A DNA stretch of 24,000 bases, taken from assembly GCF_003347515.1 (NCBI RefSeq), contig NZ_QEII01000240.1, positions 74,065-98,064 on the forward strand, read 5' to 3'. This document shows positions 8,451 to 24,000 of the stretch, piece after piece. The position numbers were made by a program, and so were the translations under genes. The notes below the pieces were generated by a model. It had not been told where the DNA came from and ran no database searches. It saw only the letters and a list, made by a program, of their open reading frames with translations. The stretch comes from Rhodoferax ferrireducens. GTDB lineage: Bacteria > Pseudomonadota > Gammaproteobacteria > Burkholderiales > Burkholderiaceae_C. Positions within the stretch are counted from its first letter, which is position 1, and the number at the start of each line of letters is the position of its first letter.

Positions 8451-10138
8451 CAGACCACCGTCAAGGGTTGGCCAAAACCAAGATCTCGACGCAGGCGTGT
8501 GCAAATTTCTTCGTGTGTTAGCCCCGCTCGTGCGCCATCAACCACGGCACCGAACACATTGCCTGACGAATTATCGACCACACGCGAGATGTGGTCGAGC
8601 GCTTTGTCGACTTCAGCGACGGAGCGCCCCTTCTTCCAGGTCGCAAAATCGTCCAAATGCCCCTGCATTACGGCCGGATCAGGGCGTTCAATGAAGGGGC
8701 GCGCACTGGCGTCCTCCTCGGTCTGAAACGCGTTGACGCCTACAACAAGCTGTTCGCCCGACTCGATGCGCCGTTGGGCGCGAAGGGCTGACGCGCCGAT
8801 CATTCGTTGAATCAGTCCCGATTCGACGGCCTTGTACATTCCGCCGGCGTCATCGACCATCTTGATGATGGACCGGATCTTTTCTTCCATTTGGTCCGTC
8901 AAGGCTTCCACGTAAAACGATCCCCCGAGCGGATCAATCACATCCGTCAGGTGGGCTTCTTCGCGAAGGACGTTTTGTGTCGCGACCGCAATGCGCGCAC
9001 CGAACTCGCTGGGGCATGCCAACGCCTCATCGTAGGCATCCGTGTGCAATGACTGGAGTCCTCCGAAGATTCCAGCCATCGCCTGAACGGTGACACGGGC
9101 AATGTTATTGAGCGGCTGTTGCCGCGTCAGGTCAACCCCTGAAGTCTGTCCGTGGAATTTAAAGCGGGATGACCTCGGGTCCTTGGCACCGAGTCGCTCG
9201 CGAGTAATCTGGGACCAAATGCGTCGCCCAGCACGAAATTTGGCGATCTCCTCAAAAAGGCTCAGCGAGATATCGAAAAAGAAGGTGAAGCGCGGCAAGA
9301 AATCGTCAGGATCCATACCACGAGCGATGCAGTCTTCGGCATTCTGAATAGCAGTACACAGCGTAAAGGCCATCGCCTCGGCCGGCGTCGCGCCTGCCTG
9401 CTGCATATGTTGACCGACCACCGACATCGGATTCCAGCGGGGAACATATTGCTTGCAATACGCGATGTGATCGAGCAATACGCGACGCGATCCAGGCAGC
9501 GAAAGCCGGTAGAACATGTGGTTGGCGACAAAATGCGAGATGTAGTCACTCTGGTTTGAAGTGCCAGTGATTGATCGCCAGTCGGTGCCACGCCGTTCGG
9601 CCGCAATCAGCATGAAGGCCAAAAGAGTGAATGGCGACGGGTCGTTCAGTGCACACGAGACTTCTCCGACGTCGACCCCTTGAAGGCTGCGCTGCATGTG
9701 GTCGACGTTGTTGATCACGACCCCACACGTTCCGAGCAGTTCCTTATCGACCGAGCTCATGTCATAGCCGCGATACACGGAATTGCAGGGAATGAGGGAA
9801 ACAGCCGTCGCACCGCCCTCCATCAGGCCCAATAGACGCGCGTTGTAGTCTGCCGGTGTGCCGAGCCCGACCAGTTGCCGCTGCGTCCAGGTGCGACCTC
9901 GGTACATCGTCGCATAGATGCCACGCGTGTAGTCGGGCTGGCCAGGGTAGCTCAGCGGATCATCGCCGCCGTACCGCGCCCAGTCGCAGGGGGTGTAAAG
10001 CGGTTTGATCGGTATCCCCGACACGTTTTCGAGAGGACGCTCCGCCGGAATCGACTCACGGTATTCGGTTTCCCACGCGGTGTAAGAGGGGGTCGATTCA
10101 AGACCTGTGGTGATCGACGGTTCAATTGGCTTGTCCAT
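8450..10138 (-). CDS. Coenzyme B12-dependent acyl-CoA mutase, large (substrate-binding TIM-barrel) subunit; divergent member of the methylmalonyl-CoA mutase family
   Basis: ORF 8450..10186. I prefer the ATG at 10138 (MDKPIEP), which has AAGGAAA upstream and sits 1 nt after the small-subunit stop. Family motifs are [55 protein letters not shown] and [15 protein letters not shown]. Confidence 0.85.
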
Positions 10139-10139
10139 T

Positions 10140-10580
10140 TCAATTTCCTTTACCAAGCAAGGCGGCACCCTCAATTCGAGCCTCACGTGCGTAGTCGCGA
10201 ATGCGCGCCGTGATTTCGTCCATCGTGCTGCCAGGATGGAATACCTGCCGTACGCCGCTCTTAATTAACTGGACTTCCTCGTTGTCCGGCACGATGCCGC
10301 CAACGATGACGCGCACATTACCCAGGCCGGCCTCCCGTAGCGCCTTGATCAGCTTGGGAACGATCAGATGATCGGTTGCCAGAGAGGAGATGCCAATCAC
10401 ATCCACATCCTCCTCGAGCGTCGTTTTCACGACGGTCTCAATGCTCTGCCAGGGAGGGGTATAGATCACCTCCATTCCGGCGTCGCGGCAGGCAGCGGCA
10501 ACAATGCGGCTGCCGCGGTCGTGGCCATCCAGCCCAATCTTTGTCACCAGCACCTTCGGTTTAAAGTCCTGTGGAGTCAT
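10140..10580 (-). CDS. Acyl-CoA mutase small subunit, B12-binding domain
   Basis: 146 aa. The canonical cobalamin-binding DxHxxG is present (GLDGHDRGS), followed by GISSL and VIVGGIVP, as in IcmB/HcmB-type small subunits. Confidence 0.85.
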
Positions 10581-10590
10581 TCGCTATCCT

Positions 10591-11250
10591 TTACAGTTTG
10601 AGTAAATTCATTTTCAGCAGCTCGATGAATCGCTTGGCAATCTCGTCCGGCGTCAACGCGCCCCCTTCCCTGAACCAGGTTTGACTCCAGTTCAGTGCGC
10701 CCATGAGCAAGAGGCGCAGATCACGCCGCTCGACCGACTTCGGCAGCGGAAGCATTTCGAGCAGTGCTTCGAAGCGGTGTTCGTACGAGTTGCGAAGGAT
10801 GGCCAATTCGGCAGCGACGGCGGGGGCATCGTCGGGTCGGATGCGTATCACTACTTGCGAGTAGTCGGTACGATCCAACAGGGCTGATAGATGCCCGATG
10901 CAAGCAGCCTCGAGCCGATTCCACGGATCGTCAACGCCATCGATGGCGGCGTCGACCTTGGCAGAAATCCGCTCAACGCCCTCGCGATAAACAGCCACCA
11001 GCAGGGCTTCCTTGGTCTCAAAGTAGTAGTAGAGCGAGCCGGGCAGCATCCCAACGGGTTCGACAATCTCTCGAATCGACGCGGCGGCGAACCCCCGCTT
11101 GGCGAATACGCGCGCGGCTTCGTCAAGCAGTTTTGGCAAACGGTTGTGGGCACGCCGGGGGACCTTTGCGGCGTCTGAACTGGTCTCGGAAGAAATGTCG
11201 AGACGGGAGAGCTTTGTCACGGGCGTTTCCTTGGCTCGCTTGTCGAGCAT
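10591..11250 (-). CDS. TetR/AcrR family transcriptional regulator; first gene of the mutase-transporter operon
   Basis: 219 aa. The N-terminal HTH region LLDEAARVFAKRGFAAASIREIVEPVGMLPGSLYYYFETKEALL is typical of TetR. Only 10 nt separate its stop from the mutase small-subunit start. Confidence 0.85.
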   Translation of the reverse strand: MLDKRAKETPVTKLSRLDISSETSSDAAKVPRRAHNRLPKLLDEAARVFAKRGFAAASIREIVEPVGMLPGSLYYYFETKEALLVAVYREGVERISAKVDAAIDGVDDPWNRLEAACIGHLSALLDRTDYSQVVIRIRPDDAPAVAAELAILRNSYEHRFEALLEMLPLPKSVERRDLRLLLMGALNWSQTWFREGGALTPDEIAKRFIELLKMNLLKL

Positions 11251-11272
11251 ACCTTCGTCATAATTAGAAAAA

Positions 11273-11286
11273 CAAACAATTGTTTG
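11273..11286. promoter_or_regulatory. Perfect 14-bp palindrome CAAACAATTGTTTG; candidate TetR operator
   Basis: Read directly. It lies 22 nt upstream of the TetR start and immediately downstream of the predicted -10 box, so it overlaps the expected transcription start. Confidence 0.5.
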
Positions 11287-11292
11287 CTTAAA

Positions 11293-11321
11293 AGTATAGC
11301 CCCAGTCTCACCGCTTGGCAA
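11293..11321 (-). promoter_or_regulatory. Sigma70-like promoter for the TetR-mutase operon: TTGCCA-N17-TATACT
   Basis: On the minus strand the -35 TTGCCA is at 11321..11316, the spacer is exactly 17 nt, and the -10 TATACT is at 11298..11293. Confidence 0.45.
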
Positions 11322-11364
11322 TAGTTACTTACCGAGCCTTGTCCAATGAGGTATGAGCGTAGTA

Positions 11365-11840
11365 ATCGGCCCACTGGTCAAGTTGGGTGGGCACCATTGC
11401 GGTGGACGGCACCAAGATCAAGGCCAACGCCATCCGCGACAAGGCCATGAGCTACGACTGAATGCTCCAGGCCGAGGCCGAACTCCAGGCGCAAATCAAG
11501 GCTCTGATGGATAAAGCAAATGTGGCCGACCAAGCTGAGAGGAACGAGCCCAAGCTGGATATTCTGGGTGAGATCGCTCGCCGCCAAGACCGGCAAAGGC
11601 CAAGCCCCGCAAGCCCTACAAGCGCGAGTTTGGTGTGCCAGAGGACAAGGCGCAGGAAAACTTCACCGACTCCGACAGCCGTGTGATGAAACGCGCTGGC
11701 GGTGGACGAGACGGCGCACATTGTGGTGGCAGCAGAGTTGACCAACATGGCCGCTGACAGCGGCGAGGTACCCGCTGTGCTGCAAGCCGTCAAGGCCAAT
11801 TTGAATGTACAGCCTGCTCAAGTGCTGGCCGATGCGGGCT
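11365..11840 (+). mobile_element. Degraded internal fragment of an IS1182-like (IS4/IS5-superfamily DDE) transposase gene
   Basis: Pieces in three frames match the IS1182-type consensus as I remember it: LVKLG, then a frameshift, then IAVDGTKIKANAIRDKAMSYD. An in-frame TGA follows at 11459-11461 where Arg is expected, then MLQAEAELQAQIKALMDKA. A second frameshift gives RKPYKREFGVPEDKAQENFTDSDSRVMKRAGG, a deletion follows, and the last piece is VDETAHIVVAAELTNMAADSGEVPAVLQAVKANL..AQVLADAG. No terminal inverted repeats or N- and C-terminal parts were seen. Confidence 0.6.
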
Positions 11841-11955
11841 CCCCGTCCGGCAAGTTCGTCACCAGCGAGGTGCTCAACGTCGAGGGCGGAATGCTGCTGT
11901 GGTGTGAGTTCTGGCCGGCCGGCAAGCCCGACTACTTCAAGGTCGATCAGCCATG
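11841..11955 (+). pseudogene. C-terminal stub of a short-chain dehydrogenase/reductase, fused in frame to the transposase remnant
   Basis: SGKFVTSEVLNVEGGMLLW matches the characteristic SDR C-terminus (..ITGQxLxVDGGM..). There is no upstream Rossmann part. The reading frame switches from transposase-like to SDR-like right after LADAG. Confidence 0.4.
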
Positions 11956-12400
11956 AACGCGCAGGACCCGGCCCCATCGGCAAGTTACCTCCACGGGCCG
12001 TTTCAGCAACTCGTGGGATACGACAGCTTGAACGACGAGCGCGGCCTGTATTTCCGGCTGCCAATCCGGCGCGACCACCTCAACCCCCACGGCGTGCTCC
12101 ACGGCGGCGTGCCCTTGACCCTGCTCGATGCGGTCGGGGGCAGAACGCTGATCAACCGGCCAATCCCAGGCAGCGGCCAGCTCATCCAGTCGTCGGTGAC
12201 AGTCACGCTCACCGTGGATTTCATGCGTGCGATTGGCGCCGGAATCCTGTTTGCATCGGGAACGCCTGACTGCAGCGTCGTGCGTTCATTGCGTGCCCTC
12301 ACAGATATGGGCACGACGTTTGCGCTCACCTTGCGCACGAGGATTCGATGGTCTTATGAGATGCATCGGACCAGTACACGCACTCGCGCGGACACCCGGT
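11953..12400 (+). pseudogene. PaaI/4HBT-like hotdog thioesterase, probably decayed (3' end undefined, no stop codon)
   Basis: The start overlaps the preceding stop (ATGA). The N-terminal two-thirds is hotdog-like: HLNPHGVLHGGVPLTLLDAVGG ... TVTLTVDFMRAIGAG. After about residue 100 similarity fades. The frame then stays open until 13260 only because it runs antisense through the ADH gene. Confidence 0.4.
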
Positions 12401-12420
12401 GCACGACTTCGCGCCTTCGG

Positions 12421-14589
12421 TCATTTCTTGGGGCGTATCGCGTCTGCCGTACCCTGGATGAAGGCCTTGATCTTCTCCACATCGTCCACGCTCAGCTTGC
12501 CCGTGAAGTCAGGCATGCCCCTGCTCATGGCCGGTCCTTTGAAGATGAACTTGTCGAGGTTTTCGATGAAGGCCGCGTTCATGTAGCCGAGGTTGGGAAT
12601 GCTGCCGCTGCGGTCCACGCCGGGAACACCATGGCAGAGAACGCAGTTGCTCACATACAGCGCAGTACCCGCCGGCACCTGGGCCGGATCGTATTTCACG
12701 CCAGCCACCAGTTCGCCCATCCAGTAAGCAACAAACTCCGGCATAGGCGCTTTGCCACCCACGGCAAAGGTATAGACCGTGCCCAGGCCTTGTCGTTCGG
12801 AGGCGCGCTGGGAAACCCCGTAAGAGCCGCCCCATCCCACGGCAATCGACACGTACTGCTTGCCATCCACCAGGTAGGTGACCGGTGCCGCAATCACACC
12901 GGTGCCCGTCAGGGATTCCCACAACTTCTCGCCGTTCTGGGCGTTATAGGCAATAAATCGTCCGTCTGCCGTGCCCTGAAAAACCAGGTTGCCGGCCGTG
13001 GTCAGCGTACCGCCGTTCCAGGGCGACACCTGTTCCTGGCGCCACGCTTCTTTTTGTCGAACCGGATCCCAGGCAATCAGGCGTCCAAACGGCTTGCTTT
13101 TCGGCGGCGTTACATTGATCAAATTGCCAGTATTCCAACCCGTACCGGAGCCTGGTTGACCTGGCTTGTTGGAATTGAAGCTCCAGTTCTTGTCGTCCAT
13201 CAGGTTGACAGGTATATTTTGCGCCGGCAAGTAGACCAACCCGGTCTGTGGGTTGAATGACATGGAATGCCAGTTGTGCGCGCCGTAGGGGCCTGGAATG
13301 GCGTCAAACGGCCGATCCGTGGGGCGCGCCTCTGCGGTCTCGATGGGGCGCCCAGTCGCGTCATAGCCGGTGGCCCAGTTCACATCAACAAAGTTTTTTG
13401 CCGAGATGAACTTGCCGTTGGTGCGGTCGATCACGAAGAAGAAACCGTTCTTCGGCGCATGCAGGATCACCTTACGCGGCTTGTTATCAATCTTGAGATC
13501 GGCCAGGATCATCGGCTGGGTCGACGTGTAGTCCCAGTTGTCGCCGGGGGTTTCCTGGTAATGCCAGACGTACTTGCCGGTGTCCGGATTGAGTGCAACG
13601 ATGGAGGCCAGGTAAAGGTTGTCGCCACCTGCGGGGCTGCGCTTGGCGCGACTCCAGGGTGAGCCGTTGCCGGTCCCGACGTACATCAGATTCAAAGCTG
13701 GGTCAAAGGCCATCGAGTCCCAGGCGGTGCCACCGCCGCCCGCCGCCCAGTACTTGCCGCTGGGGTCCCAGGTTTTGGCCGCCGCGGCCATGGAGGCGTC
13801 TTCAAATGGCTTGCTTGGATCCCCTGGTACCGTGAACCATCGCCATTTTTGTTTGCCGCTGGCGGCATCGTAGGCCGTGATGTAACCCCGCACGCCGTAT
13901 TCGGCGCCACCATTGCCAATGATGACCTTGTCTTTGAAAATCCGTGGTGCGCCCGTGCTGGTGTAGGAACGGCTGTGATCAATGACGGTGTCCTGTTCCC
14001 ACGCCACTTTGCCGGATGCGGCATCGAGGGCGATCAACCGACCATCAAAGGCGGCAACGTAGATGCGACCCTTGTGCAAGGCTACGCCACGGTTAACCAC
14101 ATCACAGCAGCCTTTGTAACCGAACTCACGTTTGATTTCTGGGTCATAGGTCCAGATTCTTTTCCCGGTCCGCACATCCACGGCATGAACAATGCTCCAG
14201 GACGCGGTCACATACATGATGCCGTCCACCACCAGCGGCGTGGCCTCAACGCCTCGTGTGGATTCGAGGTTGTACGACCAGACCAGTCCCAGGTCCTTCA
14301 CATTGGAAGCATTGACCTGATTAAGCTTGCTGAACCGTGTCTCGGCATAGTCCAGCCCAGTGCTTGGCCAATCGGCGGTCCTGGCCTCGTTGGCGCGCAT
14401 GAACGCGCCATCGACCTTCTTGGTCACGGCCGCAATGTGCGCCGTCGAGCCCTTGGCCCCTTCGGCCATGGCGGCCGGCACTGCCGTGGCAAGCAGCGAA
14501 GCCACCGCCAACGTCAGGGCCAATGCAGGGCGCTTTACTAATTTCCCTTGCCGCGCCTGACGCGCCGGCTTGATCCAACTGTTCATCAT
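12421..14589 (-). CDS. Quinohemoprotein PQQ-dependent alcohol dehydrogenase (type II ADH: eight-bladed PQQ propeller plus C-terminal cytochrome c domain)
   Basis: 722 aa with a signal peptide ending PAAMA-EG. The vicinal disulfide GYKGCCDVVNRG is typical of PQQ-ADHs, and ETPGDNWDYTSTQ is the active-site region. The C-terminal heme c motif is CVLCHG, with a GMPDF Met-ligand region. The start is ATG 14589 or, with better SD spacing, 14586. It lies 21 nt downstream of the preceding gene. Confidence 0.9.
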   Translation of the reverse strand: MMNSWIKPARQARQGKLVKRPALALTLAVASLLATAVPAAMAEGAKGSTAHIAAVTKKVDGAFMRANEARTADWPSTGLDYAETRFSKLNQVNASNVKDLGLVWSYNLESTRGVEATPLVVDGIMYVTASWSIVHAVDVRTGKRIWTYDPEIKREFGYKGCCDVVNRGVALHKGRIYVAAFDGRLIALDAASGKVAWEQDTVIDHSRSYTSTGAPRIFKDKVIIGNGGAEYGVRGYITAYDAASGKQKWRWFTVPGDPSKPFEDASMAAAAKTWDPSGKYWAAGGGGTAWDSMAFDPALNLMYVGTGNGSPWSRAKRSPAGGDNLYLASIVALNPDTGKYVWHYQETPGDNWDYTSTQPMILADLKIDNKPRKVILHAPKNGFFFVIDRTNGKFISAKNFVDVNWATGYDATGRPIETAEARPTDRPFDAIPGPYGAHNWHSMSFNPQTGLVYLPAQNIPVNLMDDKNWSFNSNKPGQPGSGTGWNTGNLINVTPPKSKPFGRLIAWDPVRQKEAWRQEQVSPWNGGTLTTAGNLVFQGTADGRFIAYNAQNGEKLWESLTGTGVIAAPVTYLVDGKQYVSIAVGWGGSYGVSQRASERQGLGTVYTFAVGGKAPMPEFVAYWMGELVAGVKYDPAQVPAGTALYVSNCVLCHGVPGVDRSGSIPNLGYMNAAFIENLDKFIFKGPAMSRGMPDFTGKLSVDDVEKIKAFIQGTADAIRPKK

Positions 14590-14610
14590 GTCTCCTTTTT
14601 TTCGTGCTAT

Positions 14611-15222
14611 TTACTTTTGAGGTAAGTCGGTGATCGGGGTTTTGCGCCGCTGTCCGGTGAGCCGGTACAAGAGCCAGGCCAAGCCGATAAAGATCAAGGG
14701 CAATGGCAGGTATTTCCAGTAGTTGCGGACGCCGACGCGAAACGGAAAAACCGAGGTCTCCATCTTCCCGCTGACCGGGTCCGCAGCACTGATCAGGCCG
14801 ATGTACCAGCCAGGTTCAGTGAACCGGTGATCCAGGGTGACCGTGCCGCGCGAATAGACCTTGGCCGGCAACGCCACCAACGTCCGCTGCCCAATCCGGC
14901 TCGTATCGCCAAGATCCTCGTAGCGCGCCTTGGCACCCAGTCCATCCGCGTCACGCAGGATGCGGAACTCCACCACGCGTTCGCGCAGCGCGGGCTGGAT
15001 GAAGTCAATCACGATCACAGCCCGCCCTACCTCGGGTATGTCCTCGCAAAACTCCTGGCTGGCACGGTGCTCGGGCTGGTACCCGGCAAAATGAGCTTGG
15101 TTGCTGCCGATGCGCAGGATGCATTTGTCGTCTTCCATGCCGACCCCGCCATGCGCCCATGCCGATGCCGCAACCAACGCAAGCAGCGAGGAACTCAACA
15201 TTCGGATCAGTCGCATCTCCAT
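14611..15222 (-). CDS. Hypothetical exported protein with a C-terminal membrane anchor, co-transcribed with the CuMMO (PmoD/AmoD-like architecture; homology not established)
   Basis: 203 aa. The signal peptide MLSSSLLALVAASAWA precedes HGGVGMEDDKC. A soluble domain of about 140 aa carries two Cys, followed by one hydrophobic helix (LPLPLIFIGLAWLLYRL) and a basic tail. The start ATG overlaps the xmoB stop (TAATG at 15220-15224). Confidence 0.6.
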   Translation of the reverse strand: MEMRLIRMLSSSLLALVAASAWAHGGVGMEDDKCILRIGSNQAHFAGYQPEHRASQEFCEDIPEVGRAVIVIDFIQPALRERVVEFRILRDADGLGAKARYEDLGDTSRIGQRTLVALPAKVYSRGTVTLDHRFTEPGWYIGLISAADPVSGKMETSVFPFRVGVRNYWKYLPLPLIFIGLAWLLYRLTGQRRKTPITDLPQK

Positions 15223-16463
15223 TACCCCCCGAACAGCGGAATCATCGGCCCGCTGATTTCAACCGGGTAGCGGTTACCCTGGGCGTCAAACAAAAACAGC
15301 ATGCCAGCCACCACCGCATCCGGGGAAGCGATCATCGTCGTCATGCGCTGCGTCTCCCACATCGCGTCGTCCGCATAGATCACGATCTTTTGCGTTGCAC
15401 CCGGCTTGATCGGACCACCCTCAACACGCAACGCGTCCTGCGCTACCAGATCATCCTGATCTTTGGGCGTGACCTTCAGAACCGCCGAGTTGATGAAACG
15501 AAGGCCGCCCGAGGCAAACTCACCGATGTTCAAGGGACCCTTCCCGCTGTTGCTCACTGTGAGCTCGATACGGAAGCTGCGCCCCGGGATGCGGTAGCGG
15601 GCATCGTCCATAGTGACCGACACCGGCGAAGGCGCCATCTTCAGAGTCGGGGTCTTGACCTTGCCGGTTTGAAGCGGTGTCGTGACGGGCCAGCGCTCAG
15701 AGGCATAAATGAAACCGCCCGCAACAAGCATCAGCGTGGCTACCATGATGACCAGTGCCGCCTGACGGTCACGCGTTGTGATCATCTCGTCGGCGTTCTC
15801 GCCCAGCGCGGTGGCACGCCGGTACCTCGGCAGAACCAAAGGCAACTTGGTCAACCAATAGCCAAACCAGACCAAAGCAAGCACCAACCATGCAGCAGAC
15901 CAGACAGCCGCATTAGCGAAGCCATGCGTTTCCAAATTCAGGGTTTGGTTAAACAATGTGGTGATGCTGTTTTCAAATGTCGCCTGGTCGCCAACAACCT
16001 CGACCCAAATACCCGGTCCAATCATCGGCCCGGCATCCTTCACATTGATGATCGGATGCAGGTGATAGCGCCCGGGTGTGCGGGCCTTCAACGTGACCTC
16101 GAAGTTGTACTGCTCACCGCGCTCATACGAACTACTGCGTATGGTGGGCACACCGTTGATGCGGCTGTCCAGGCGCACAAAAGACGGCCCGGGCACACCT
16201 ATATTGAGATAGGCAGTGTTCTCAATGGAGGCCACATGGGCCGGCCAGGAGTTCGAAGGAATAAAACTTCCCTTGACGACCAGCATTTGGTTGACAGCGA
16301 GCTTGCGCGTCGATAAATCGACGTCAAACCAATGTACGGTGCGCATGCGCAAAGCAGGCTGCTGGGCCTTTTCACCATGAGCCAACGCAGGCGCTGCTGA
16401 AAGCGTAACCAGAACGACGACCAGCCCTTGAATGACTGCGAACAATTTTGCAATGAAATTCAT
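15222..16463 (-). CDS. xmoB: Copper membrane monooxygenase subunit B (PmoB/AmoB family)
   Basis: ORF 15222..16520. I prefer the ATG at 16463 (MNFIAKLF..), which has AAGGAAGAGG upstream. The signal peptide ends ALA-HGEKAQQPALRMRTVHWFD; compare M. capsulatus PmoB HGEKSQAAFMRMRTIHWYD. Other matches are RYHLHPIINV (HxH of the CuB site), two central TM helices, and the C-terminal cupredoxin region ending FLFDAQGNRYPVEISGPMIP. Confidence 0.9.
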   Translation of the reverse strand: MNFIAKLFAVIQGLVVVLVTLSAAPALAHGEKAQQPALRMRTVHWFDVDLSTRKLAVNQMLVVKGSFIPSNSWPAHVASIENTAYLNIGVPGPSFVRLDSRINGVPTIRSSSYERGEQYNFEVTLKARTPGRYHLHPIINVKDAGPMIGPGIWVEVVGDQATFENSITTLFNQTLNLETHGFANAAVWSAAWLVLALVWFGYWLTKLPLVLPRYRRATALGENADEMITTRDRQAALVIMVATLMLVAGGFIYASERWPVTTPLQTGKVKTPTLKMAPSPVSVTMDDARYRIPGRSFRIELTVSNSGKGPLNIGEFASGGLRFINSAVLKVTPKDQDDLVAQDALRVEGGPIKPGATQKIVIYADDAMWETQRMTTMIASPDAVVAGMLFLFDAQGNRYPVEISGPMIPLFGG

Positions 16464-16473
16464 GACCTCTTCC

Positions 16474-17226
16474 TTAAACAACTTTGCGCAGCCACACAGC
16501 CTTGACACCGAGCGAGCCAATCCAGGCCCAAAACCAGAGACTCAATATGGTCAGGAAGCCCGCAAAAACCGCCGTCAACGGCGTCACTGCGTCGCCGAAG
16601 GTCCTCAATGTGCTCTGCTCGATGATGCGCACATATTCAGGCATGGCGGTGCGGATGTACTCAAAGCCCATCACGTCCGCCACTGTCATCAGCGTGCCAT
16701 GCATTTCGACCGGCACCATGAACGGGGCCAGCAATGGCCAGTTCATGGGGTACAGAAGCAGCCCCGAAAGAAAGCCCGCAAAAATCCCCGTGAAAAACCA
16801 GCTGCGCGTCAGCAGCAAAGTGCAATCAATCAAGAGGCCCACACCAAGGTAGGTCGACGGCAGCACCATATTCATCGGAAAACCCGCGAACTCGTGAAAG
16901 TTAAGGTAACGACTCAACCAGCCCGTCAGCGTCAGCCCGAGAATGCTCAGCGTGGCACCCAGAGGTAGGCGCAGCAGCTTCCAAAACGCGTAGCCGAATA
17001 CGCCGGGCAGAATAACCAGCACCAGTGGCGTGACCAGCGGCCAATAACGGCGATCTCGCCAATCAATCCAGTAATCCCAGTCCCCTACCAAGAGGGCAAA
17101 CTGGAAGGCAAATACCGCTCCCAGCAGGATCACAAAGAGAGGGATGACCACCCAGTCAACCTGGGCATCAACGCGGGCCGCTTCCTGCGGGCTAAAGGCA
17201 GCCTCAGCCGGTGTCAAAACAGACAT
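16474..17226 (-). CDS. xmoA: Copper membrane monooxygenase subunit A (PmoA/AmoA family)
   Basis: 250 aa. Matches to PmoA/AmoA as I remember them: GDWDYWIDWRDRRYWPLVTP, NFHEFAGFPMNMVLPS, MNWPLLAPFMVPVE and YIRTAMPEYVRIIEQSTLRTFG. The RBS is GGAGAC. Confidence 0.9.
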   Translation of the reverse strand: MSVLTPAEAAFSPQEAARVDAQVDWVVIPLFVILLGAVFAFQFALLVGDWDYWIDWRDRRYWPLVTPLVLVILPGVFGYAFWKLLRLPLGATLSILGLTLTGWLSRYLNFHEFAGFPMNMVLPSTYLGVGLLIDCTLLLTRSWFFTGIFAGFLSGLLLYPMNWPLLAPFMVPVEMHGTLMTVADVMGFEYIRTAMPEYVRIIEQSTLRTFGDAVTPLTAVFAGFLTILSLWFWAWIGSLGVKAVWLRKVV

Positions 17227-17366: not shown

Positions 17367-18146
17367 TCAGTGAGCCGTTTGAATGGCGGCTTGTGGCGAC
17401 ACCAGCTGCTTTGTCAAATCGGCTACTCTGCTCAATATCTGAACAAGCAAGCCACCAGCCACAAACGTAGACCAACCCAGCAGCACAAAGCCGTAGTGAA
17501 TCGGCGCGGAAAACAATTCCTCGGCATAGAAGAAAGTGTGACCCCACTCATTGAAACCGACGTTGGGCATGATCATGAATGCGCCCGCAATGATGATGGC
17601 GAACGGAAGCGAGATGCGATTGCCAAAGAAAGGGATTCGTGTATGAGCGTAGGCGAAAGTAATGAAACCCCAAAACACCAGCAAAGGCACACAGAAGTAA
17701 AATAAACCAATGTGAGTGGGTGTGAAATCCGTATCCCGGATTGTCACCTGATGCCAGGCTGCATCAGCCTCTGTGTAGATCGAACCTGTTACATAAAACA
17801 TGATGGCGAACAACAAAATCATGCCCATCAGCAAGAATAGACGCCGAACTTCTTCGCGCGGCCCAATCGTGGAAAAATCCCGCACACGGGTGTTCCACAA
17901 ATACACCAGCGTCCCGGTTCCCAACGCAAGAATCAGAATCAACTGCCCATACAGCAGGCGCATCCAGTAAACATCGAACTCATGGCTGAAATAATCGAGT
18001 CCATAGGTGAACGCCGACGCCTCAGAGTAAATTCGATAGCTGGTAAATAGCAGCGCAAGCCCAAGTAGCGCCAGAAAGAACTTACCCCACGGAACCCCGA
18101 TGGCCGCCCGCGCAGCACCAGTGATGTTGATAGAACTCGTTTTCAT
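17367..18146 (-). CDS. xmoC: Copper membrane monooxygenase subunit C (PmoC/AmoC family)
   Basis: 259 aa. Matches to PmoC/AmoC: TEADAAWHQVTIRDTDFTPTH and PNVGFNEWGHTFFYAEELFSAPIHYGF. The D-x3-H-x12-H pattern is D128/H132/H145 and the N-x3-H-x13-H pattern is N199/H203/H217. The RBS is GGAGAC. Confidence 0.9.
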   Translation of the reverse strand: MKTSSINITGAARAAIGVPWGKFFLALLGLALLFTSYRIYSEASAFTYGLDYFSHEFDVYWMRLLYGQLILILALGTGTLVYLWNTRVRDFSTIGPREEVRRLFLLMGMILLFAIMFYVTGSIYTEADAAWHQVTIRDTDFTPTHIGLFYFCVPLLVFWGFITFAYAHTRIPFFGNRISLPFAIIIAGAFMIMPNVGFNEWGHTFFYAEELFSAPIHYGFVLLGWSTFVAGGLLVQILSRVADLTKQLVSPQAAIQTAH

Positions 18147-18370
18147 CGTCTTGTCTCCTGTTATTTAAAGTAAACATCCGGCCATTGAGAGCCTGCCTGT
18201 CGAATGGCAAGACCGGACTTCGTGCCAATGTGCCGGGAATGGTAAAACGAAGCATGTCCAACGTCACCTAACTTTCGTTAGGGTGTTTTCCATGACGCAT
18301 CGCAATAAACTTGCGTCCACCTCGGATTGCTATCGCAAAAGGAGGGAAAACAATATTAAAAGATACAAAA

Positions 18371-19828
18371 ATGAAGTCTGCCTCCCCTGTAATACAAATG
18401 CACCTTGTAAGTCCGGACGAGCCCGTCAAGCAGTCTGAAGTAAAGCGCATCTTCGCCGCCCAACGCGAAACGGCCTTGCGGCTTCGTCAATCGACCGCCG
18501 CGCAACGCCTCGACAAGATTGACCGCCTGAAGCGGGCCGTCCTGGCCCGCCAGGCCGACATCCAGCGCGCCGGCGCACTGGACTTCGGCAAACCAGCCGC
18601 CGAGGTCGATCTGACAGAAATTTTGCCCATCGTGGCCGAGGCCAACGACGCGCGTCGCCATCTGCGCCGCTGGATGAAGCAGCAGAAGGTTGTCCCGACC
18701 CTGCTGATGTTCGGCACGTCGAGCTATGTGCAGTGCGAACCGAAGGGCCGTTGCCTGATCATCTCGCCCTGGAACTACCCGGTCAACCTGACCTTCGGCC
18801 CGCTGATCTCGGCTATCGCCGCCGGTAACACAGCGATTCTCAAACCCTCTGAGATGACACCGCACCTGTCGGAGGTGATGGCCGAGATCGTGCGCGAGGT
18901 GTTTACCGAAGACGAGGTAGCCCTGTTCCAGGGCGAAGCGGCGGTCTCGCAGGCCCTGCTGGATCTGCCGTTCGATCACATCTTCTTTACCGGCTCGCCG
19001 GCGATTGGCCGCGTGGTGATGGCCGCGGCGGCCAAGCACCTGACCAGCGTGACACTGGAACTGGGCGGCAAAAGCCCGACCATCGTCGACGCCACGGCGG
19101 ACCTGAAAGCAGCGGCGGCCAACCTCATGTGGTCCAAATGCACCAACAGCGGCCAGACCTGCATTGCGCCGGATCACGTCTACGTCCACGAATCGGTCAA
19201 GGAATCCTTTGTCCAGCACTGCCGGGAGGCTCTGGCCAAAGCCTACGGTGAAGGCGATGCCGTGCGCACCAGCCCTCACCTGGCGCACATCGTCAATGAA
19301 CGCCATGCCAAACGCATCGTCGGACTGCTTGATGACGCGCTTCAAAAAGGTGCCAGGCTGCTGGCCGGCGGCCAGCACCAGACGGATCGCCAGTTCGTGG
19401 CACCCACCTTGATCGACCAGCTCAGCCCGGACGCGAAGATCATGCAGGAAGAAATCTTCGGCCCCTTGCTGCCCGTGATCGCCTACCGCGATCTCGACGA
19501 AGTCATCACCAAGATCAACGACCAGCCCAAGCCGCTCGCACTGTACATCTGGACCAGGGATGGCAAAGTCGCCGACAAGGTGCTGCGGGAAACGAGTTCG
19601 GGTGGTGCCTGCGTCAACCACAGCGTCGTGCAGTTCCTGCATGGCCGCTTGCCATTCGGCGGCATCAACAATTCCGGGCTCGGCAGCGCACACGGGATCT
19701 ACGGGTTCAAGGCCTTCAGCCATGAGCGCGCGGTCGTCAAGACTTGGCTGCTGCTGGCGTCGACCTTCTACCCGCCCTACACCCCTCTGTCGCGACGGCT
19801 GATCAACTGGACGCTGCGTCTGGTCTGA
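18371..19828 (+). CDS. alkH: NAD(P)+-dependent aldehyde dehydrogenase, ALDH3/AlkH-like (medium-chain or fatty aldehyde type)
   Basis: ORF 18311..19828 (TTG). I prefer ATG 18371 (MKSASPV), but the start is uncertain because the only strong SD (GGAGGG, 18341-18346) is 24 nt upstream. Motifs are PWNYPVNLTFGPLISAIAAGN, ELGGKSP, the catalytic GQTCIAPDHVYV, EEIFGPLLPV and PFGGINNSGLGSAHG. It is co-linear with P. putida GPo1 AlkH as I remember it. Confidence 0.8.
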   Translation: MKSASPVIQMHLVSPDEPVKQSEVKRIFAAQRETALRLRQSTAAQRLDKIDRLKRAVLARQADIQRAGALDFGKPAAEVDLTEILPIVAEANDARRHLRRWMKQQKVVPTLLMFGTSSYVQCEPKGRCLIISPWNYPVNLTFGPLISAIAAGNTAILKPSEMTPHLSEVMAEIVREVFTEDEVALFQGEAAVSQALLDLPFDHIFFTGSPAIGRVVMAAAAKHLTSVTLELGGKSPTIVDATADLKAAAANLMWSKCTNSGQTCIAPDHVYVHESVKESFVQHCREALAKAYGEGDAVRTSPHLAHIVNERHAKRIVGLLDDALQKGARLLAGGQHQTDRQFVAPTLIDQLSPDAKIMQEEIFGPLLPVIAYRDLDEVITKINDQPKPLALYIWTRDGKVADKVLRETSSGGACVNHSVVQFLHGRLPFGGINNSGLGSAHGIYGFKAFSHERAVVKTWLLLASTFYPPYTPLSRRLINWTLRLV

Positions 19829-19840
19829 CGGTCTCGGTTG

Positions 19841-19873
19841 CACCGGTCTAGCCCGGTGAACTTCTTTTTTCTC
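19841..19873 (+). terminator. Weak terminator or attenuator candidate after the aldehyde dehydrogenase gene (CACCGG tctagc CCGGTG followed by AACTTCTTTTTTCTC)
   Basis: A 6-bp perfect stem with a 6-nt loop and a T-rich tract, 13 nt after the stop codon. Confidence 0.3.
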
Positions 19874-19894
19874 TGAATCGCATAGGGACAAATC

Positions 19895-21535
19895 TTGAAA
19901 TTCGATTACGTTATCGTGGGCGCCGGTTCGGCCGGCTGTGTCTTGGCCAACCGCTTGAGCGCCGATCCGTCGAGGCGCGTGTGCCTGCTCGAAGCGGGAC
20001 GGTCCGACGACACCCCGCTGATCCGCACCCCCATGGGCATGGTGGGCTTGCTCACGACCCGCAAGTACAACTGGTATTTCGACACCGAACCACAAGCCCA
20101 ACTCGACGGCCGCCGCCTGTACTGGCCACGCGGCAAGACACTCGGGGGCAGCAGCTCGATCAATGCCATGGTCTACATGCGCGGACACCAAGCCGACTAC
20201 GACGCATGGGCCGCAGCTGGAAACGCCGGATGGGCCTACAAGGACCTTCTGCCGATGTTCTTGGAGCATGAGAATAACGAGCGCGGCGCCTCGACCTACC
20301 ACAGGACAAATGGACTACTGAACGTCGCCGATGTGCGCTCGCCCAACCCCTTGTCGGGCCGCTTCATCGACGCCGCCGTGCAATGCGGTATTCCGCGCAA
20401 TATGGATTTCAACGGCGCGCAACAGGAAGGTGCCGGGCCTCACCAGGTGACCCAGAAGAACGGCGAGCGCTGGAGCAGCGCGCGGGCCTTCCTGCACCCG
20501 GTCATGGACCGGTCGAATCTGACCGTGCTCACCGGCGCCCATGTCACGCGCATCCTGTTCTCTGGCAAACAGGCCGTGGGGGTCGAGATCGAACACAAAG
20601 GCGAACGCCAGCGCATTGAGGCCGAGCATGAAATCATTCTGAGTGGCGGCGCCATCCATTCGCCGCAGTTGCTGCAGCTCTCGGGCGTGGGGCCGAAGCA
20701 GGCGCTGGCCCGGCACGGCATCACCCAAGTCGCTGATTTGCAGGGCGTAGGCCAAAACCTGCAGGACCATCTCGACGTGACGGTGATGATCCGCGACCGC
20801 AGCAAGCAGGCGATTGGTGTTGCACCTGGTTTTCTTCCGAGAGCGGTCGCCGGGCTCTGGCAATACTGGCGCAAGCGCGAGGGCTTTCTGTCCAGCAACG
20901 TGGCTGAGGCCGGGGGCTTTGCCAAGTTGTCGCCGCAATCGGCGCTGCCGGAAGTGCAGTTCCATTTCCTGCCGACCTACCTGCGTAACCATGGCCGCGA
21001 TCTGGCGCCCGGCTATGGCGCCACCTTGCACATGTGCCAGTTGCGACCGAAAAGCCGTGGCTTCATCGACCTGAAAAGCGCCGACCCGCTGGCCGCACCG
21101 GTGATTCAGCCCAACTACCTGAGCCATGCCGACGACTGGGACGAGATGCTGCGCGGCCTGAAACTTGCGCGGCGCCTCTTTGAGGCCGATGCCTTTCACG
21201 ACATCCATGGCGGTGAAGTGGCGCCGGGTGCCGGCGTGCGCAGCGACCAGGATTTGCGGGCCTACATCCGGCGCAGCGCGGAAACCATTTATCACCCGGT
21301 CGGTAGCTGCAAAATGGGGAACGATGACATGGCTGTGGTCGACGCGCAGTTGCGGGTGCACGGACTCTCAAACCTGCGTGTCGCCGATGCATCCATCATG
21401 CCGACCCTCATCGGCGGCAACACCAATGCCCCTTGCATGGTGATCGGCGAGAAGTGCGCTCGCGCCATCCTGCGCAGCCACAAGCCGCAGCCAGCCCATG
21501 CGCAAGCCAACCGCACCCAACTCTTGGCGGCCTGA
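19895..21535 (+). CDS. alkJ: FAD-dependent GMC-family oxidoreductase, AlkJ/choline-dehydrogenase-like alcohol dehydrogenase
   Basis: 546 aa with a TTG start and AGGGA 6 nt upstream. The N-terminus FDYVIVGAGSAGCVLANRLS is the ADP-binding fold. GGSSSINAMVYMRG is the GMC signature, and the C-terminus carries HPVGSCKMG and the LRVADASIMP active-site region. Confidence 0.85.
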   Translation: MKFDYVIVGAGSAGCVLANRLSADPSRRVCLLEAGRSDDTPLIRTPMGMVGLLTTRKYNWYFDTEPQAQLDGRRLYWPRGKTLGGSSSINAMVYMRGHQADYDAWAAAGNAGWAYKDLLPMFLEHENNERGASTYHRTNGLLNVADVRSPNPLSGRFIDAAVQCGIPRNMDFNGAQQEGAGPHQVTQKNGERWSSARAFLHPVMDRSNLTVLTGAHVTRILFSGKQAVGVEIEHKGERQRIEAEHEIILSGGAIHSPQLLQLSGVGPKQALARHGITQVADLQGVGQNLQDHLDVTVMIRDRSKQAIGVAPGFLPRAVAGLWQYWRKREGFLSSNVAEAGGFAKLSPQSALPEVQFHFLPTYLRNHGRDLAPGYGATLHMCQLRPKSRGFIDLKSADPLAAPVIQPNYLSHADDWDEMLRGLKLARRLFEADAFHDIHGGEVAPGAGVRSDQDLRAYIRRSAETIYHPVGSCKMGNDDMAVVDAQLRVHGLSNLRVADASIMPTLIGGNTNAPCMVIGEKCARAILRSHKPQPAHAQANRTQLLAA

Positions 21536-21628
21536 GTTCCCACCAAGAGGCATCACGCGCTGCATCTCAACACGATACCCGGCCAGTGGCCGAATTTAGC
21601 CTTAACCCAAAAAACCCAAGGAGACATC

Positions 21629-23269
21629 ATGAACGGTCAAATGATGAGCGCCCCTCTGCTCATTTCCTCACTCATCACCCATGCGGCGCGCCATCACGGC
21701 GATGTGCCCATCGTCTCGCGCCGTGTCGAAGGCGATATCCACCGCACCACCTATGCGCAATTGCATGACCGGTCGCGCCAGATGGCCCATGCGCTCGGCG
21801 GTCTCGGCGTGCAAGCGTCGCAGCGCGTCGCCACGCTGGCCTGGAACGGCTACCGGCATCTGGAGCTGTACTTCGCCGTGTCCGGCAGCGGTTCGGTGCT
21901 GCACACCCTCAACCCGCGCCTGCACCCGGACCAGTTGCGCTACATCCTCGACCATGCCGAGGACCAGGTGCTGTTCTTTGACCTGACCTTCCTGCCCCTG
22001 GTCGAGGCCGTGGCGGGGCGCTGCAAGACGGTGCGCCACTTCGTCGCGATGATCGACAAGGACAAGATGCCGGCGAGCAAGCTGCCCAATTTGCTGTGCT
22101 ACGAAGACCTTGTCTCGGCGCACGAACCCGACTTCGTGTGGCCTACCTTCGACGAAAACACCGCCTCGTCGTTGTGCTACACCTCGGGCACCACCGGCAA
22201 CCCCAAGGGCGTGCTCTACAGCCACCGCTCGACGATGCTGCACACCTATGCTTCGGTCATGCCGGACGCGATTGGCATCTCATCGCGCGACGGCGTGATG
22301 CCGGTGGTGCCCATGTTCCACGTTAATGCCTGGGGCCTGCCCTACAGCTGCACGATGGTCGGCGCCAAGCTGGTGCTGCCGGGTCCGGCGCTGGACGGCA
22401 AGTCGCTGCACGAACTGATTGCTGCCGAGCAGGTGACGTTTGCGGCCGGCGTACCCACCATCTGGCTCGGCCTGCTCCAGTATGTCTCGCAGAACTCGCT
22501 CAGCCTGGCCCCTTTGAAGCGCACCATTATCGGCGGCTCGGCCGTGCCGCCGAGCATGATGCGAGCCTTCGAAGACGAGTTCGGCGTCGAAGTCATCCAT
22601 GCCTGGGGCATGACGGAGATGTCCCCGCTGGGCACGGTGTGCCGACTGCGCCAAAAGCATCTGGCCGATCCGCTGGACTCGCAGCATGCGCGGCTCGCAA
22701 AGCAAGGCAAGGCGGTGTTCGGCATAGACATGCGCATCGTCGATCCGCAAGGGGACGATGTCCCCTGGGACGGCAAGTCGCAAGGCGATCTGATGGTGCG
22801 CGGACCGTGGGTGGTTCAGAGCTACTTCGGCTCTGATGGCGCTGACCCGCTGGTAAGCGATGAGACGGGCGCGCAGTGGTTCCCCACCGGCGATGTGGCC
22901 ACGATCGACGCCGATGGCTACATGCAGATCACCGATCGGAGCAAGGACGTCATCAAGTCTGGCGGCGAATGGATCGGCTCGATCGACCTGGAGAACGTTG
23001 CCATGGCACACCCGGCGGTGGCGATGGCAGCGGCCATCGCCGTGATTCACCCGAAATGGGATGAACGGCCCTTGCTGGTGGTGGTGCGCAAGCCAGGTAC
23101 GGAGGTCACCCGCGAAGCGCTGATCGAGCACTACAAGGGCAAGGTCGCCTCCTGGTGGGTGCCGGACGACGTGGTGTTCGTCGATGCCATCCCCATCGGC
23201 GCCACCGGCAAGATGCTGAAGAACCAGTTGCGCGAGCAGTTCAAAGACCACCGGCTGCCGGGGGTCTAA
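21629..23269 (+). CDS. alkK: Medium/long-chain acyl-CoA ligase, AlkK-like AMP-binding enzyme
   Basis: 546 aa with RBS AAGGAGA. The N-terminus is [24 protein letters not shown]. Motifs are [21 protein letters not shown] and [30 protein letters not shown]. It has the same length class and N-terminal pattern as AlkK as I remember it. Confidence 0.85.
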
Positions 23270-23272
23270 AGA

Positions 23273-23323
23273 TTTGCGGCGAACAAAGATGCCGCAAAAG
23301 TAGGCCCGGCAAGTCGCCGGGCC
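23273..23323 (+). terminator. Two tandem hairpins after the acyl-CoA ligase gene (TTTGCGGC-10 nt-GCCGCAAA; GGCCCGGC-5 nt-GCCGGGCC), with no T-tract
   Basis: Both 8-bp stems are perfect and were read directly. The missing U-tail makes terminator function uncertain. Confidence 0.3.
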
Positions 23324-23343
23324 CATAACAACGTAAAGGAGAC

Positions 23344-24000
23344 ATGATGAAACAATTGGAAATTCGGCGAATGGCCAGCCTGGCTGTATTGTGCGGCATC
23401 GCGGGCGCTGTATCCGCCCAGGAATCGCCGTGGTTTGTGCGCGTTGGTGCCGCATCCGTTCAATACCAATCCGATGCGGACATTACAGTCGGGGGAGGCC
23501 CGGTGCCAGGGGCCGCGTTGAGCCTGAGTGACAGCACGACCCTCGCGGCCGAGATCGGATACTGGCTCACGCCCTCGGTAGCCCTGCGGGCAACGGTGGG
23601 GATACCGCCGAGTACGCGCATCGAAGGTCGGGGTACGGTGGCTGGCTTAGGTCAGTTAGGCGAGATCAAGTATGCGCCAGCGATGTTTACCGGCACGTAC
23701 AGCTTCGACCTCGGAACCATCAAGCCTTACATTGGTGGCGGGATCGCCTACATGCATATCCTGGAGTCAAATGACGGCGCAGTCGCGGGCCTGGACGTGG
23801 AGAGCCGGTTTGGTGGCGTGCTGCAAGCCGGCGTGGATATTCCCATCGACAAGTCGTGGGGATTGTTCGTCGACTTCCGCAAGCTGTACTGGAAAACCAA
23901 GGCAACCGGAACAGTCCCCGCATTCGGCGGAGCGCCCGTCCAGGCCGACTTGAACCCCTCTCCGTTCGTGGTGATGGCCGGGGTATCGAAGCGTTTTTGA
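23344..24000 (+). CDS. alkL: OmpW/AlkL-family outer-membrane beta-barrel (uptake channel for hydrophobic substrates)
   Basis: 218 aa, with the stop TGA at 23998-24000, exactly at the window end. The signal peptide is LAVLCGIAGAVSAQE. VGGGPVPGAALSLSDSTTL compares with AlkL VGGGALPNADVSIGNDTTL. It has an alternating beta-strand pattern and a C-terminal aromatic residue (..VSKRF). The second ATG (23347) has better SD spacing. Confidence 0.85.
   Translation: MMKQLEIRRMASLAVLCGIAGAVSAQESPWFVRVGAASVQYQSDADITVGGGPVPGAALSLSDSTTLAAEIGYWLTPSVALRATVGIPPSTRIEGRGTVAGLGQLGEIKYAPAMFTGTYSFDLGTIKPYIGGGIAYMHILESNDGAVAGLDVESRFGGVLQAGVDIPIDKSWGLFVDFRKLYWKTKATGTVPAFGGAPVQADLNPSPFVVMAGVSKRF

Follow-up and report, generated by a model that had tools for sequence, protein, structure and literature searches.

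A 24,000-nucleotide stretch of the Rhodoferax ferrireducens genome (contig NZ_QEII01000240.1 of assembly GCF_003347515.1, positions 74,065 to 98,064; hereafter the window) carries two divergent operons on either side of a common intergenic region. The left one consists of the copper membrane monooxygenase (CuMMO) genes xmoCABD, followed by the gene for a pyrroloquinoline quinone (PQQ)-dependent alcohol dehydrogenase (PQQ-ADH). The right one holds genes for an aldehyde dehydrogenase (ALDH), a GMC alcohol dehydrogenase, an acyl-coenzyme A (acyl-CoA) ligase and an OmpW-type porin, in alkHJKL order and here denoted H, J, K and L. We consider it quite probable that together they form a unit for alkane oxidation, that its alk-like right operon is no descendant of alkBFGHJKL, and that hydroxylase cassettes come and go around it; the alkanes concerned are probably short to medium in chain length. 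The locus varies only modestly from known alkane clusters and is not a new kind of system. What appears to be new is the organization of the alk-like partner operon, the conserved candidate operator, and the scars left by reciprocal loss of CYP153 and CuMMO. The two operons and the elements bordering them are laid out as follows.

11953..12270, plus strand: PaaI-type thioesterase gene, 3'-truncated (blastn against JS666, junction sequences, protein alignment)
12421..14589, minus strand: quinohemoprotein PQQ-ADH with a C-terminal cytochrome c domain (Pfam PQQ and Cytochrome_CBB3; TIGR03075, 680 bits; PDB 1kb0, 1232 bits)
14611..15222, minus strand: xmoD, 203-aa protein homologous to PmoD, carrying a signal peptide and, C-terminally, a transmembrane helix (PDB 6cpd (PmoD), E 3.7e-19)
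15222..16463, minus strand: xmoB, CuMMO subunit B, 413 aa (PF04744, E 1.5e-121; NF041640, 523 bits)
16474..17226, minus strand: xmoA, CuMMO subunit A (PF02461, E 1.6e-76)
17367..18146, minus strand: xmoC, CuMMO subunit C (PF04896, E 1.2e-70)
18147..18370, no strand: divergent intergenic region of 224 bp between the xmoC and ALDH starts
18267..18282, no strand: perfect palindrome, candidate operator, kept in the intergenic regions of relatives
18371..19828, plus strand: class-3 (fatty) ALDH in the AlkH position, 485 aa (PF00171; PDB 4qgk, 1ad3)
19895..21535, plus strand: GMC flavin adenine dinucleotide-dependent alcohol dehydrogenase, AlkJ-like, 546 aa, TTG start (Pfam, NCBIfam)
21629..23269, plus strand: adenosine monophosphate (AMP)-forming short/medium-chain acyl-CoA ligase in the AlkK position, DmdB-like subfamily, 546 aa (NF005426; PDB 6ihk)
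23344..24000, plus strand: OmpW-family outer-membrane barrel, broadly AlkL-like, 218 aa (PF03922; PDB 6qam)

The original prediction, made from the letters alone, had placed the four plus-strand genes in the families and order of alkH-J-K-L, and the Pfam and NCBIfam results agree. The same holds for the 224-bp divergent gap to xmoCAB: the ALDH start codon, ATG at 18371, is kept in relatives in the intergenic alignment and, taken together with the xmoC start at 18146, sets the gap to 18147-18370. As had been predicted for alkB, alkF and alkG, tblastn with AlkB and rubredoxin queries from a canonical alk operon found no match anywhere in the window. The CuMMO operon runs C-A-B and then into a PmoD-like gene, as expected of an xmoCAB(D) cluster, with Pfam E-values of 1e-70 to 1e-121. 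The xmoB open reading frame reaches back to a TTG at 16520, and the start giving 413 aa was taken from the gene call on the identical contig L083, while xmoD had no match in the Pfam scan and was assigned through PDB 6cpd instead. The PQQ-ADH gene is co-oriented with xmoCABD and begins 21 nt past xmoD. This adds a second alcohol dehydrogenase that had been overlooked when alcohol oxidation was ascribed to the GMC enzyme, which is itself indeed present. The stop codon of the porin gene is the final codon of the window (24000). In the gap separating the ALDH and GMC genes, a GC-rich hairpin (CACCGG-TCTAGC-CCGGTG, 19841-19858) followed by a T-run might act as an attenuator or stabilize the messenger RNA, such matches in the region not being above shuffled expectation.

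How close, then, are the right-operon proteins to those of alk operons? Our comparator was the canonical alkB-alkF-alkG-alkH-alkJ-alkK-alkL operon on plasmid pCP7-41 of Pseudomonas sp. 7-41, a stand-in for the GPo1 sequences (84 % identity between its AlkL and that of GPo1 in PDB 6qam), and further canonical alk operons were taken from Marinobacter sp. NP-4, Phaeobacter sp. G2 and Sphingopyxis fribergensis plasmids; the operon order and the roles of AlkH, AlkJ, AlkK and AlkL are as reviewed elsewhere (PMC8918992). Over approximately their full length, H, J, K and L are 50 %, 56 %, 54 % and 29 % identical to the pCP7-41 proteins, and the top NCBIfam models of the window proteins and of AlkH, AlkJ and AlkK are identical, with similar scores. 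These shared models and identities, together with AlkL being the best structural match of the porin, assign the four to the subfamilies of AlkH, J, K and L. Within those subfamilies, the canonical H, J, K and L proteins from Pseudomonas, Marinobacter, Phaeobacter and Sphingopyxis each cluster into a tight clade, at 45-70 % to the Pseudomonas proteins, and the window ALDH, ligase and porin group with non-alk homologues outside these clades. The ALDH is up to 66 % identical to stand-alone homologues versus 50 % to AlkH, and when 86 ALDHs are ordered by distance from it, AlkH occupies ranks 71-85. Similarly, the ligase is 60-66 % identical to generic Burkholderiales ligases (Variovorax, Ralstonia, Caballeronia) versus 54 % to AlkK. 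The porin falls outside the AlkL clade proper, at 29-33 % to AlkLs versus 40-44 % to other OmpWs, the latter found at the end of the bph operon of Polaromonas naphthalenivorans CJ2 and on a Xanthobacter Py2 plasmid.

The GMC enzyme is, on these comparisons, the sole one of the four that looks like its Alk counterpart. Among its plasmid matches, six of the seven that come next after JS666 are AlkJ-type genes on plasmids with alk-type operons; viewed from AlkJ, the window clade is the second-nearest group, and AlkJ members occupy ranks 7-28 of 80 by distance from the window GMC. The predicted closeness to Alk proteins, relative to other members of their families, thus fails for H, K and L and may hold for J. 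In distance-based neighbour-joining (NJ) trees with 50 bootstraps, for which sequences were sampled by similarity to the window proteins, the window clade was recovered in 50/50 replicates of both the H and the J set, and the alk clade in 50/50 (J) and 49/50 (H). An exclusive joint clade of window and alk sequences appeared in 0/50 replicates for H and likewise in 0/50 for J. With three of four right-operon genes nearer to non-alk homologues, the operon probably did not arise from alkBFGHJKL through loss of alkBFG; these comparisons give no support to a recent origin in an alk operon, and H-J-K-L looks like an independently built look-alike of alkHJKL with the same functions and order.

At the level of single proteins, the nearest solved structures to the ALDH are the human fatty aldehyde dehydrogenase (FALDH) 4qgk and the class-3 ALDH 1ad3, as well as 3sza (PDB search). 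Its alignment with AlkH extends to the C-terminus, and it has the characteristics of the ALDH3/FALDH family, including an AlkH-like C-terminal tail. The GMC protein clears the NCBIfam PRK02106 subfamily model with 640 bits. The ligase scores 986 bits against a cut-off of 822 on NCBIfam NF005426 (PRK07008) and so passes the curated threshold, AlkK remaining just under it with 798 bits; its nearest PDB entry is the AMP-binding-domain protein 6ihk (693 bits). The porin matches the OmpW fold, an eight-stranded barrel, and is, among solved structures, nearer to AlkL (6qam, 102 bits, E 2.9e-28) than to OmpW (33 bits, E 3e-7) or OprG (approximately 21 bits). Its closest plasmid-borne relatives adjoin hydrocarbon or epoxide pathways: one closes the bph operon of P. 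naphthalenivorans CJ2, another lies next to coenzyme-M biosynthesis genes on pXAUT01 of Xanthobacter Py2, and further close ones sit on plasmids of Pseudomonas strains, e.g. P. putida ND6. An OmpW-type porin beside hydrocarbon or epoxide pathway genes may be a recurring pattern rather than something specific to Alk.

The divergent pairing with xmoCAB, which the original prediction had described for this locus and proposed to look for in relatives, is kept in every close relative found. Approximately 14 loci of other assemblies, redundant copies included, show it in the forms HJ, HJL, HJK and HJKL. For a sample of other contexts, a scan of species-representative genomes with the ALDH gave at least 80 loci at 52-66 % identity (JS666 not being among the matches listed); among the matches listed, nearly none of these loci had a neighbouring GMC, ligase or OmpW gene, and an adjacent GMC gene was seen in 1 of the 80 genomes with the closest other ALDH homologues. 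Since the same divergent layout is found in approximately 14 loci, and a GMC neighbour in 1/80 of the other ALDH genomes listed, the four-gene order goes beyond chance. An identical XmoC with the same layout is found on a 10-kb Logan contig, SRR6920759_917, which ends inside the ligase gene; exact-sequence look-ups of the ligase and of the AlkL-like protein gave no match. XmoC is further 82-100 % identical to proteins labelled Rhodoferax sp., including one Rhodoferax sp. protein at 88 %. The contigs with XmoC at 82-88 %, a Rhodoferax sp. assembly among them, all have ALDH-GMC divergent from xmoCABD-PQQ-ADH, and their right operon ends as HJL, HJ or HJK. A metagenome scan with the GMC protein returned six contigs at 79-92 % identity (one a duplicate), 6/6 with divergent xmoCAB(D) and two with the full HJKL, and all remaining matches had at most 57 % identity and other gene contexts. 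Overall, the pairing holds for H, J and K at 79-97 % identity across XmoC identities of 71-100 %, with the scarred copy of JS666 as the sole exception.

In all relatives xmoD follows xmoB, and the PQQ-ADH gene follows xmoD in relatives as well. This PQQ-ADH is a more widely conserved partner of the CuMMO than the GMC enzyme. Distant xmoCABD clusters (XmoC 64-74 %) keep the PQQ-ADH and/or a divergent ALDH without GMC, ligase or OmpW genes, one of them having a FadL/TodX-type porin in place of OmpW, and an ALDH divergent from xmoC is found even at 64 % XmoC identity. As a proxy for what follows the AlkL-like gene we used the relative L103, which shares 92 % identity with the window proteins for H, J and K and 88 % for L. 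In the 7.5 kb past its AlkL-like gene, L103 encodes a Phenol_MetA_deg outer-membrane protein, a chalcone-isomerase-like protein, a transposase fragment and a chemotaxis receptor, and alkB is absent from these 7.5 kb. Moreover, neither a tblastn match nor a remnant of AlkB or AlkF was found in any xmo-linked locus compared.

Some further features of the relatives concern the CuMMO genes themselves. In L103-L105, XmoA is 97-98 % identical to that of the window, XmoC 82 %, XmoB 87-89 % and XmoD 86-87 %, with H, J and K at 90-92 %; in L106-L108 the xmo genes go down to 71-82 % with H, J and K still at 79-93 %. This uneven divergence may reflect exchange or recombination among xmo paralogue lineages carried by one chassis. 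Genes for copper handling stand by xmoCABD-PQQ-ADH in several loci (downstream of the PQQ-ADH gene in L084, L085 and L087-L089; also in L092-L095), encoding DUF2147, CopC and a CopD-cytochrome c fusion, and in some a TonB receptor; the window has no copper-handling genes in the equivalent slot, and JS666 has CYP153 there.

The nearest comparator by megablast, plasmid 2 of Polaromonas sp. JS666 (NC_007950.1), is informative on how hydroxylases were lost. Its DNA is approximately 94 % identical to the window over the PQQ-ADH gene, and again over the intergenic region and ALDH-GMC-ligase, with proteins at 95-97 %, and the 3.4 kb xmoCABD segment is missing. JS666 does keep the final 26 codons of xmoD, which read ...GLAWLLHRLTGQWRRAAIGNLPQK versus ...GLAWLLYRLTGQRRKTPITDLPQK in the window. 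This remnant is followed by an 85-bp filler, without a match in the window or in any locus compared, after which homology restarts exactly at the xmoC start codon. The scar lies beside the PQQ-ADH gene, at approximately 15600-15772 of the JS666 locus (L001), and corresponds to window 14611-14700 and 18147. From the 3' remnant of xmoD it follows that JS666 deleted xmoCAB and most of xmoD, and the reverse scenario, insertion of xmoCABD into a JS666-like ancestor, was rejected on this ground.

The window carries a scar of its own. Between its PaaI thioesterase and PQQ-ADH genes, JS666 has genes for a ferredoxin (Fdx), a ferredoxin reductase (FdR) and a CYP153A P450, and exactly this segment is missing in the window, where the PaaI gene is broken at 12270/12271 and unrelated sequence takes the place of its last 41 conserved residues. 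An extra stretch of approximately 45 bp (12341-12385) has no counterpart in JS666. The lack of the P450 segment and the truncated PaaI gene together indicate that the window lineage deleted the CYP153-FdR-Fdx cassette. The JS666 P450 matches PDB 7ant, a CYP153A alkane hydroxylase, and hydroxylation of butane and octane has been reported for CYP153A and a CYP153 homologue from JS666 (PMC8479775). Furthermore, both hydroxylases are found close together on metagenome contig L091 (JGI 3300057309, Ga0586319_15346, 10001-16948), where xmoCABD lies approximately 1.1 kb from a P450 and a reductase with 94 % and 98 % identity to their counterparts in the CYP153 system of JS666; XmoC of this contig is 74 % identical to that of the window. 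Its sister contig L090 has SDR-SDR-MaoC-TetR in the P450 position.

As such, the recent hydroxylase events appear to be a reciprocal loss of CuMMO and CYP153 rather than an exchange of CuMMO and AlkB, and in the simplest reading one chassis would ancestrally have carried both hydroxylases, of which each lineage then lost a different one. Within Polaromonas and Rhodoferax, the PQQ-ADH and HJK(L) chassis looks stable while hydroxylase cassettes come and go, the window lineage having lost CYP153-FdR-Fdx and JS666 having lost xmoCAB and most of xmoD. The scenario in its full form has, in our estimate, an even chance of being correct: a stable chassis of PQQ-ADH and alk-like operon under one palindromic operator, on which CuMMO and CYP153 cassettes are gained and lost, with a dual-hydroxylase ancestor, JS666 as a recent former CuMMO carrier, and an alkHJKL-like order that is either convergent or anciently shared.

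The relatives also share the control region between the two operons. The 224-bp intergenic region, approximately 94 % identical to that of the JS666 plasmid, contains the 16-bp palindrome CCTAACTTTCGTTAGG (CCTAAC-TTTC-GTTAGG) approximately 90 nt upstream of the ALDH start. In the intergenic alignment, this palindrome and a neighbouring TTTCCATG-CGCAT block are kept while their flanks diverge. It occurs once per locus in 13/13 near-clade loci, always within the xmoC-ALDH intergenic region, and in 0/169 of the other loci compared. Because of this position and conservation we read it as an operator and not as a terminator, the terminator-like prediction in the region being the conserved palindrome itself. 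In relatives, the unit is flanked by MalT/LuxR-type regulators of approximately 890 aa, 22 % identical to an AlkS-type protein; within the window there is neither a MalT/LuxR regulator nor AlkT, and AlkT was not seen in the vicinity of the relatives' loci either. We infer that one regulator probably binds the palindrome and thereby controls both operons.

Taken together, the gene families in the window make a complete route from uptake to CoA activation plausible, as had been predicted, with substrates and the direction of flow inferred. The alkane would enter across the outer membrane via the OmpW/AlkL-like barrel, by analogy with AlkL (PMC5376172, PMC7474606), for which uptake or whole-cell oxidation has been assayed (PMC5376172). 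The left operon would contribute an inner-membrane copper monooxygenase together with a quinohemoprotein alcohol dehydrogenase in the periplasm: XmoCAB would hydroxylate the alkane, with XmoD as an accessory protein, and the alcohol would be oxidized by the quinohemoprotein and/or by the AlkJ-like flavoenzyme, presumably membrane-associated and quinone-linked. The class-3 ALDH would then oxidize the aldehyde and the ligase would activate the resulting acid to the CoA ester for beta-oxidation. A DmdB-like ligase and a PQQ-ADH fit short to medium chains. Both operons would be under the 224-bp control region with its 16-bp palindrome, probably through a single regulator.

Could the right operon nonetheless be a direct descendant of alkHJKL, within an alkBFGHJKL-type operon whose alkB, alkF and alkG were replaced by xmoCAB? 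This is what the original prediction had proposed. All four genes agree with alkHJKL in family, order and orientation, H, J and K reach 50-56 % identity over their full length, and the top NCBIfam models are identical, all of which speaks for it. So do the AlkJ-type genes among six of the next seven GMC plasmid matches, the second-nearest rank of the window clade as seen from AlkJ, and the HJL sub-order in the alk operon of Sphingopyxis, as in Rhodoferax. However, for each of H, K and L the higher identity is to non-alk homologues (66 %, 66 % and 40-44 % versus 50 %, 54 % and 29 %), AlkH ranks 71-85 of 86, and a joint clade was recovered in 0/50 bootstraps. Moreover, xmoCAB lies on the opposite strand and not in the alkB slot, and the sole scars seen in xmo-linked loci are those of CYP153 and xmoD, with no remnant of alkB or rubredoxin. 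Replacement of AlkB by a CuMMO in an alk operon is thus not borne out, and we regard it as quite unlikely. The two-operon unit that we favour has points against it as well. The intergenic region gave no sigma-70 promoter in a consensus scan, and the ligase passes the equivalog model for 3-(methylthio)propionyl-CoA ligase, so that another primary substrate is possible. JS666 keeps HJK without a CuMMO, which means that the HJK module does not depend on xmo. Lastly, the NJ samples were selected by similarity, and an ancient common HJ(KL) operon ancestor, especially for J, is possible.

The retention of HJK with CYP153 in JS666 also speaks for the view that HJK(L) is a general module for medium-chain alcohols, aldehydes and acids, serving CYP153 or other substrates, and that its adjacency to xmoCABD is incidental within a recombination-prone catabolic island. 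The distant xmoCABD clusters L090 and L092-L095 without GMC, ligase and OmpW, the PQQ-ADH rather than GMC as the widely conserved partner, the DmdB equivalog match of the ligase, and the insertion sequence elements and mosaic flanks around the JS666 copy would all be in line with it. Yet, bar the scarred JS666 copy, all loci with close H, J and K (79-97 %) carry divergent xmoCAB(D) over an XmoC range of 71-100 %, the shared control region and its palindrome are retained, and a divergent ALDH is still present where XmoC identity is as low as 64 %; an incidental adjacency is therefore unlikely in our view. It is very improbable, finally, that the CuMMO is no alkane hydroxylase, acting instead on ammonia, methane, acetone or alkenes in a cluster that is not an alkane pathway. 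XmoA and XmoC do fall under the NCBIfam Amo and Pmo equivalog cut-offs, so that the family by itself gives no substrate assignment, and a CuMMO homologue that oxidizes acetone is known (PMC8630023). The neighbouring genes, on the other hand, encode alcohol, aldehyde and acyl-CoA enzymes and a hydrocarbon-type porin, sister loci carry a CYP153 alkane hydroxylase, and no genes of a hydroxylamine or a methanol/formaldehyde pathway were found in the window. Rochman et al. 2020 are said to have linked this CuMMO lineage to the use of ethane and propane.

Placed next to known systems, the two-operon unit shares with the GPo1-type alkBFGHJKL system (Pseudomonas putida GPo1, OCT plasmid; compared via relatives) the order of four families on one strand and their NCBIfam models. 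Where alk systems have AlkS, the window's relatives have a nearby MalT/LuxR-type regulator of the same broad type, at 22 % identity. Unlike alkBFGHJKL, the window lacks AlkB, rubredoxin and AlkT, its hydroxylase is a CuMMO on the opposite strand, it has an extra periplasmic PQQ-ADH, and its H, K and L lie outside the Alk clades. With the CYP153A cluster of JS666 plasmid 2 it has the PQQ-ADH, the intergenic region with the palindrome, ALDH-GMC-ligase and the PaaI thioesterase in common; JS666 differs by CYP153-FdR-Fdx, a 26-codon xmoD remnant and the lack of an AlkL-like gene, whereas the window has xmoCABD, a truncated PaaI and no P450. The CuMMO lineage of Polaromonas and Rhodoferax has reportedly already been published by Rochman et al. 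2020, whose clusters from alkane-utilizing Rhodoferax and Polaromonas are said to have the same CuMMO lineage, xmoCABD order and Comamonadaceae host group. In other CuMMO systems for short-chain alkanes, and in butane oxidizers with their quinoprotein butanol dehydrogenases, a membrane copper monooxygenase is likewise coupled to a PQQ-ADH and an ALDH; these CuMMO systems differ from the window in host phylum, gene order and accessory genes. A literature search, with the text of Rochman et al. 2020 outside its reach, returned no paper tying a CuMMO to alkH, alkJ, alkK or alkL.

These findings suggest that one layout can serve as the downstream half of an alkane pathway around three unrelated hydroxylases, AlkB, CYP153 and CuMMO, and they provide a dated, sequence-level case of hydroxylase cassette exchange on one chassis. 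Furthermore, the locus supports an alkane role for an uncharacterized CuMMO lineage and names both a candidate operator and a regulator type for a possible co-regulation. Its porin, two alcohol dehydrogenases, ALDH and ligase also constitute a natural gene set for expressing a CuMMO pathway.

Further to the left, the window holds genes outside the two operons. A Liv-type ABC transporter, consisting of a periplasmic binding protein, two permeases and an ATPase, lies on the minus strand at 902-5092. JS666 has a similar Liv-type set, yet just 142 bp of it aligns, at 75 % identity, which makes the left half of the window mosaic relative to JS666. Next to it, at 5110-11250 on the minus strand, stands an acyl-CoA mutase cluster made up of the following genes.

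5110-7056, minus strand: FadD11-like ligase, 648 aa
7107-8504, minus strand: MeaB GTPase fused to a PaaI-like thioesterase
8450-10186, minus strand: acyl-CoA mutase large subunit (best PDB match 2-hydroxyisobutyryl-CoA mutase 4r3u, 343 bits)
10140-10580, minus strand: B12-binding small subunit
10591-11250, minus strand: TetR regulator

Speculatively, this mutase cluster could handle C4 or branched acyl-CoAs derived from short alkanes.

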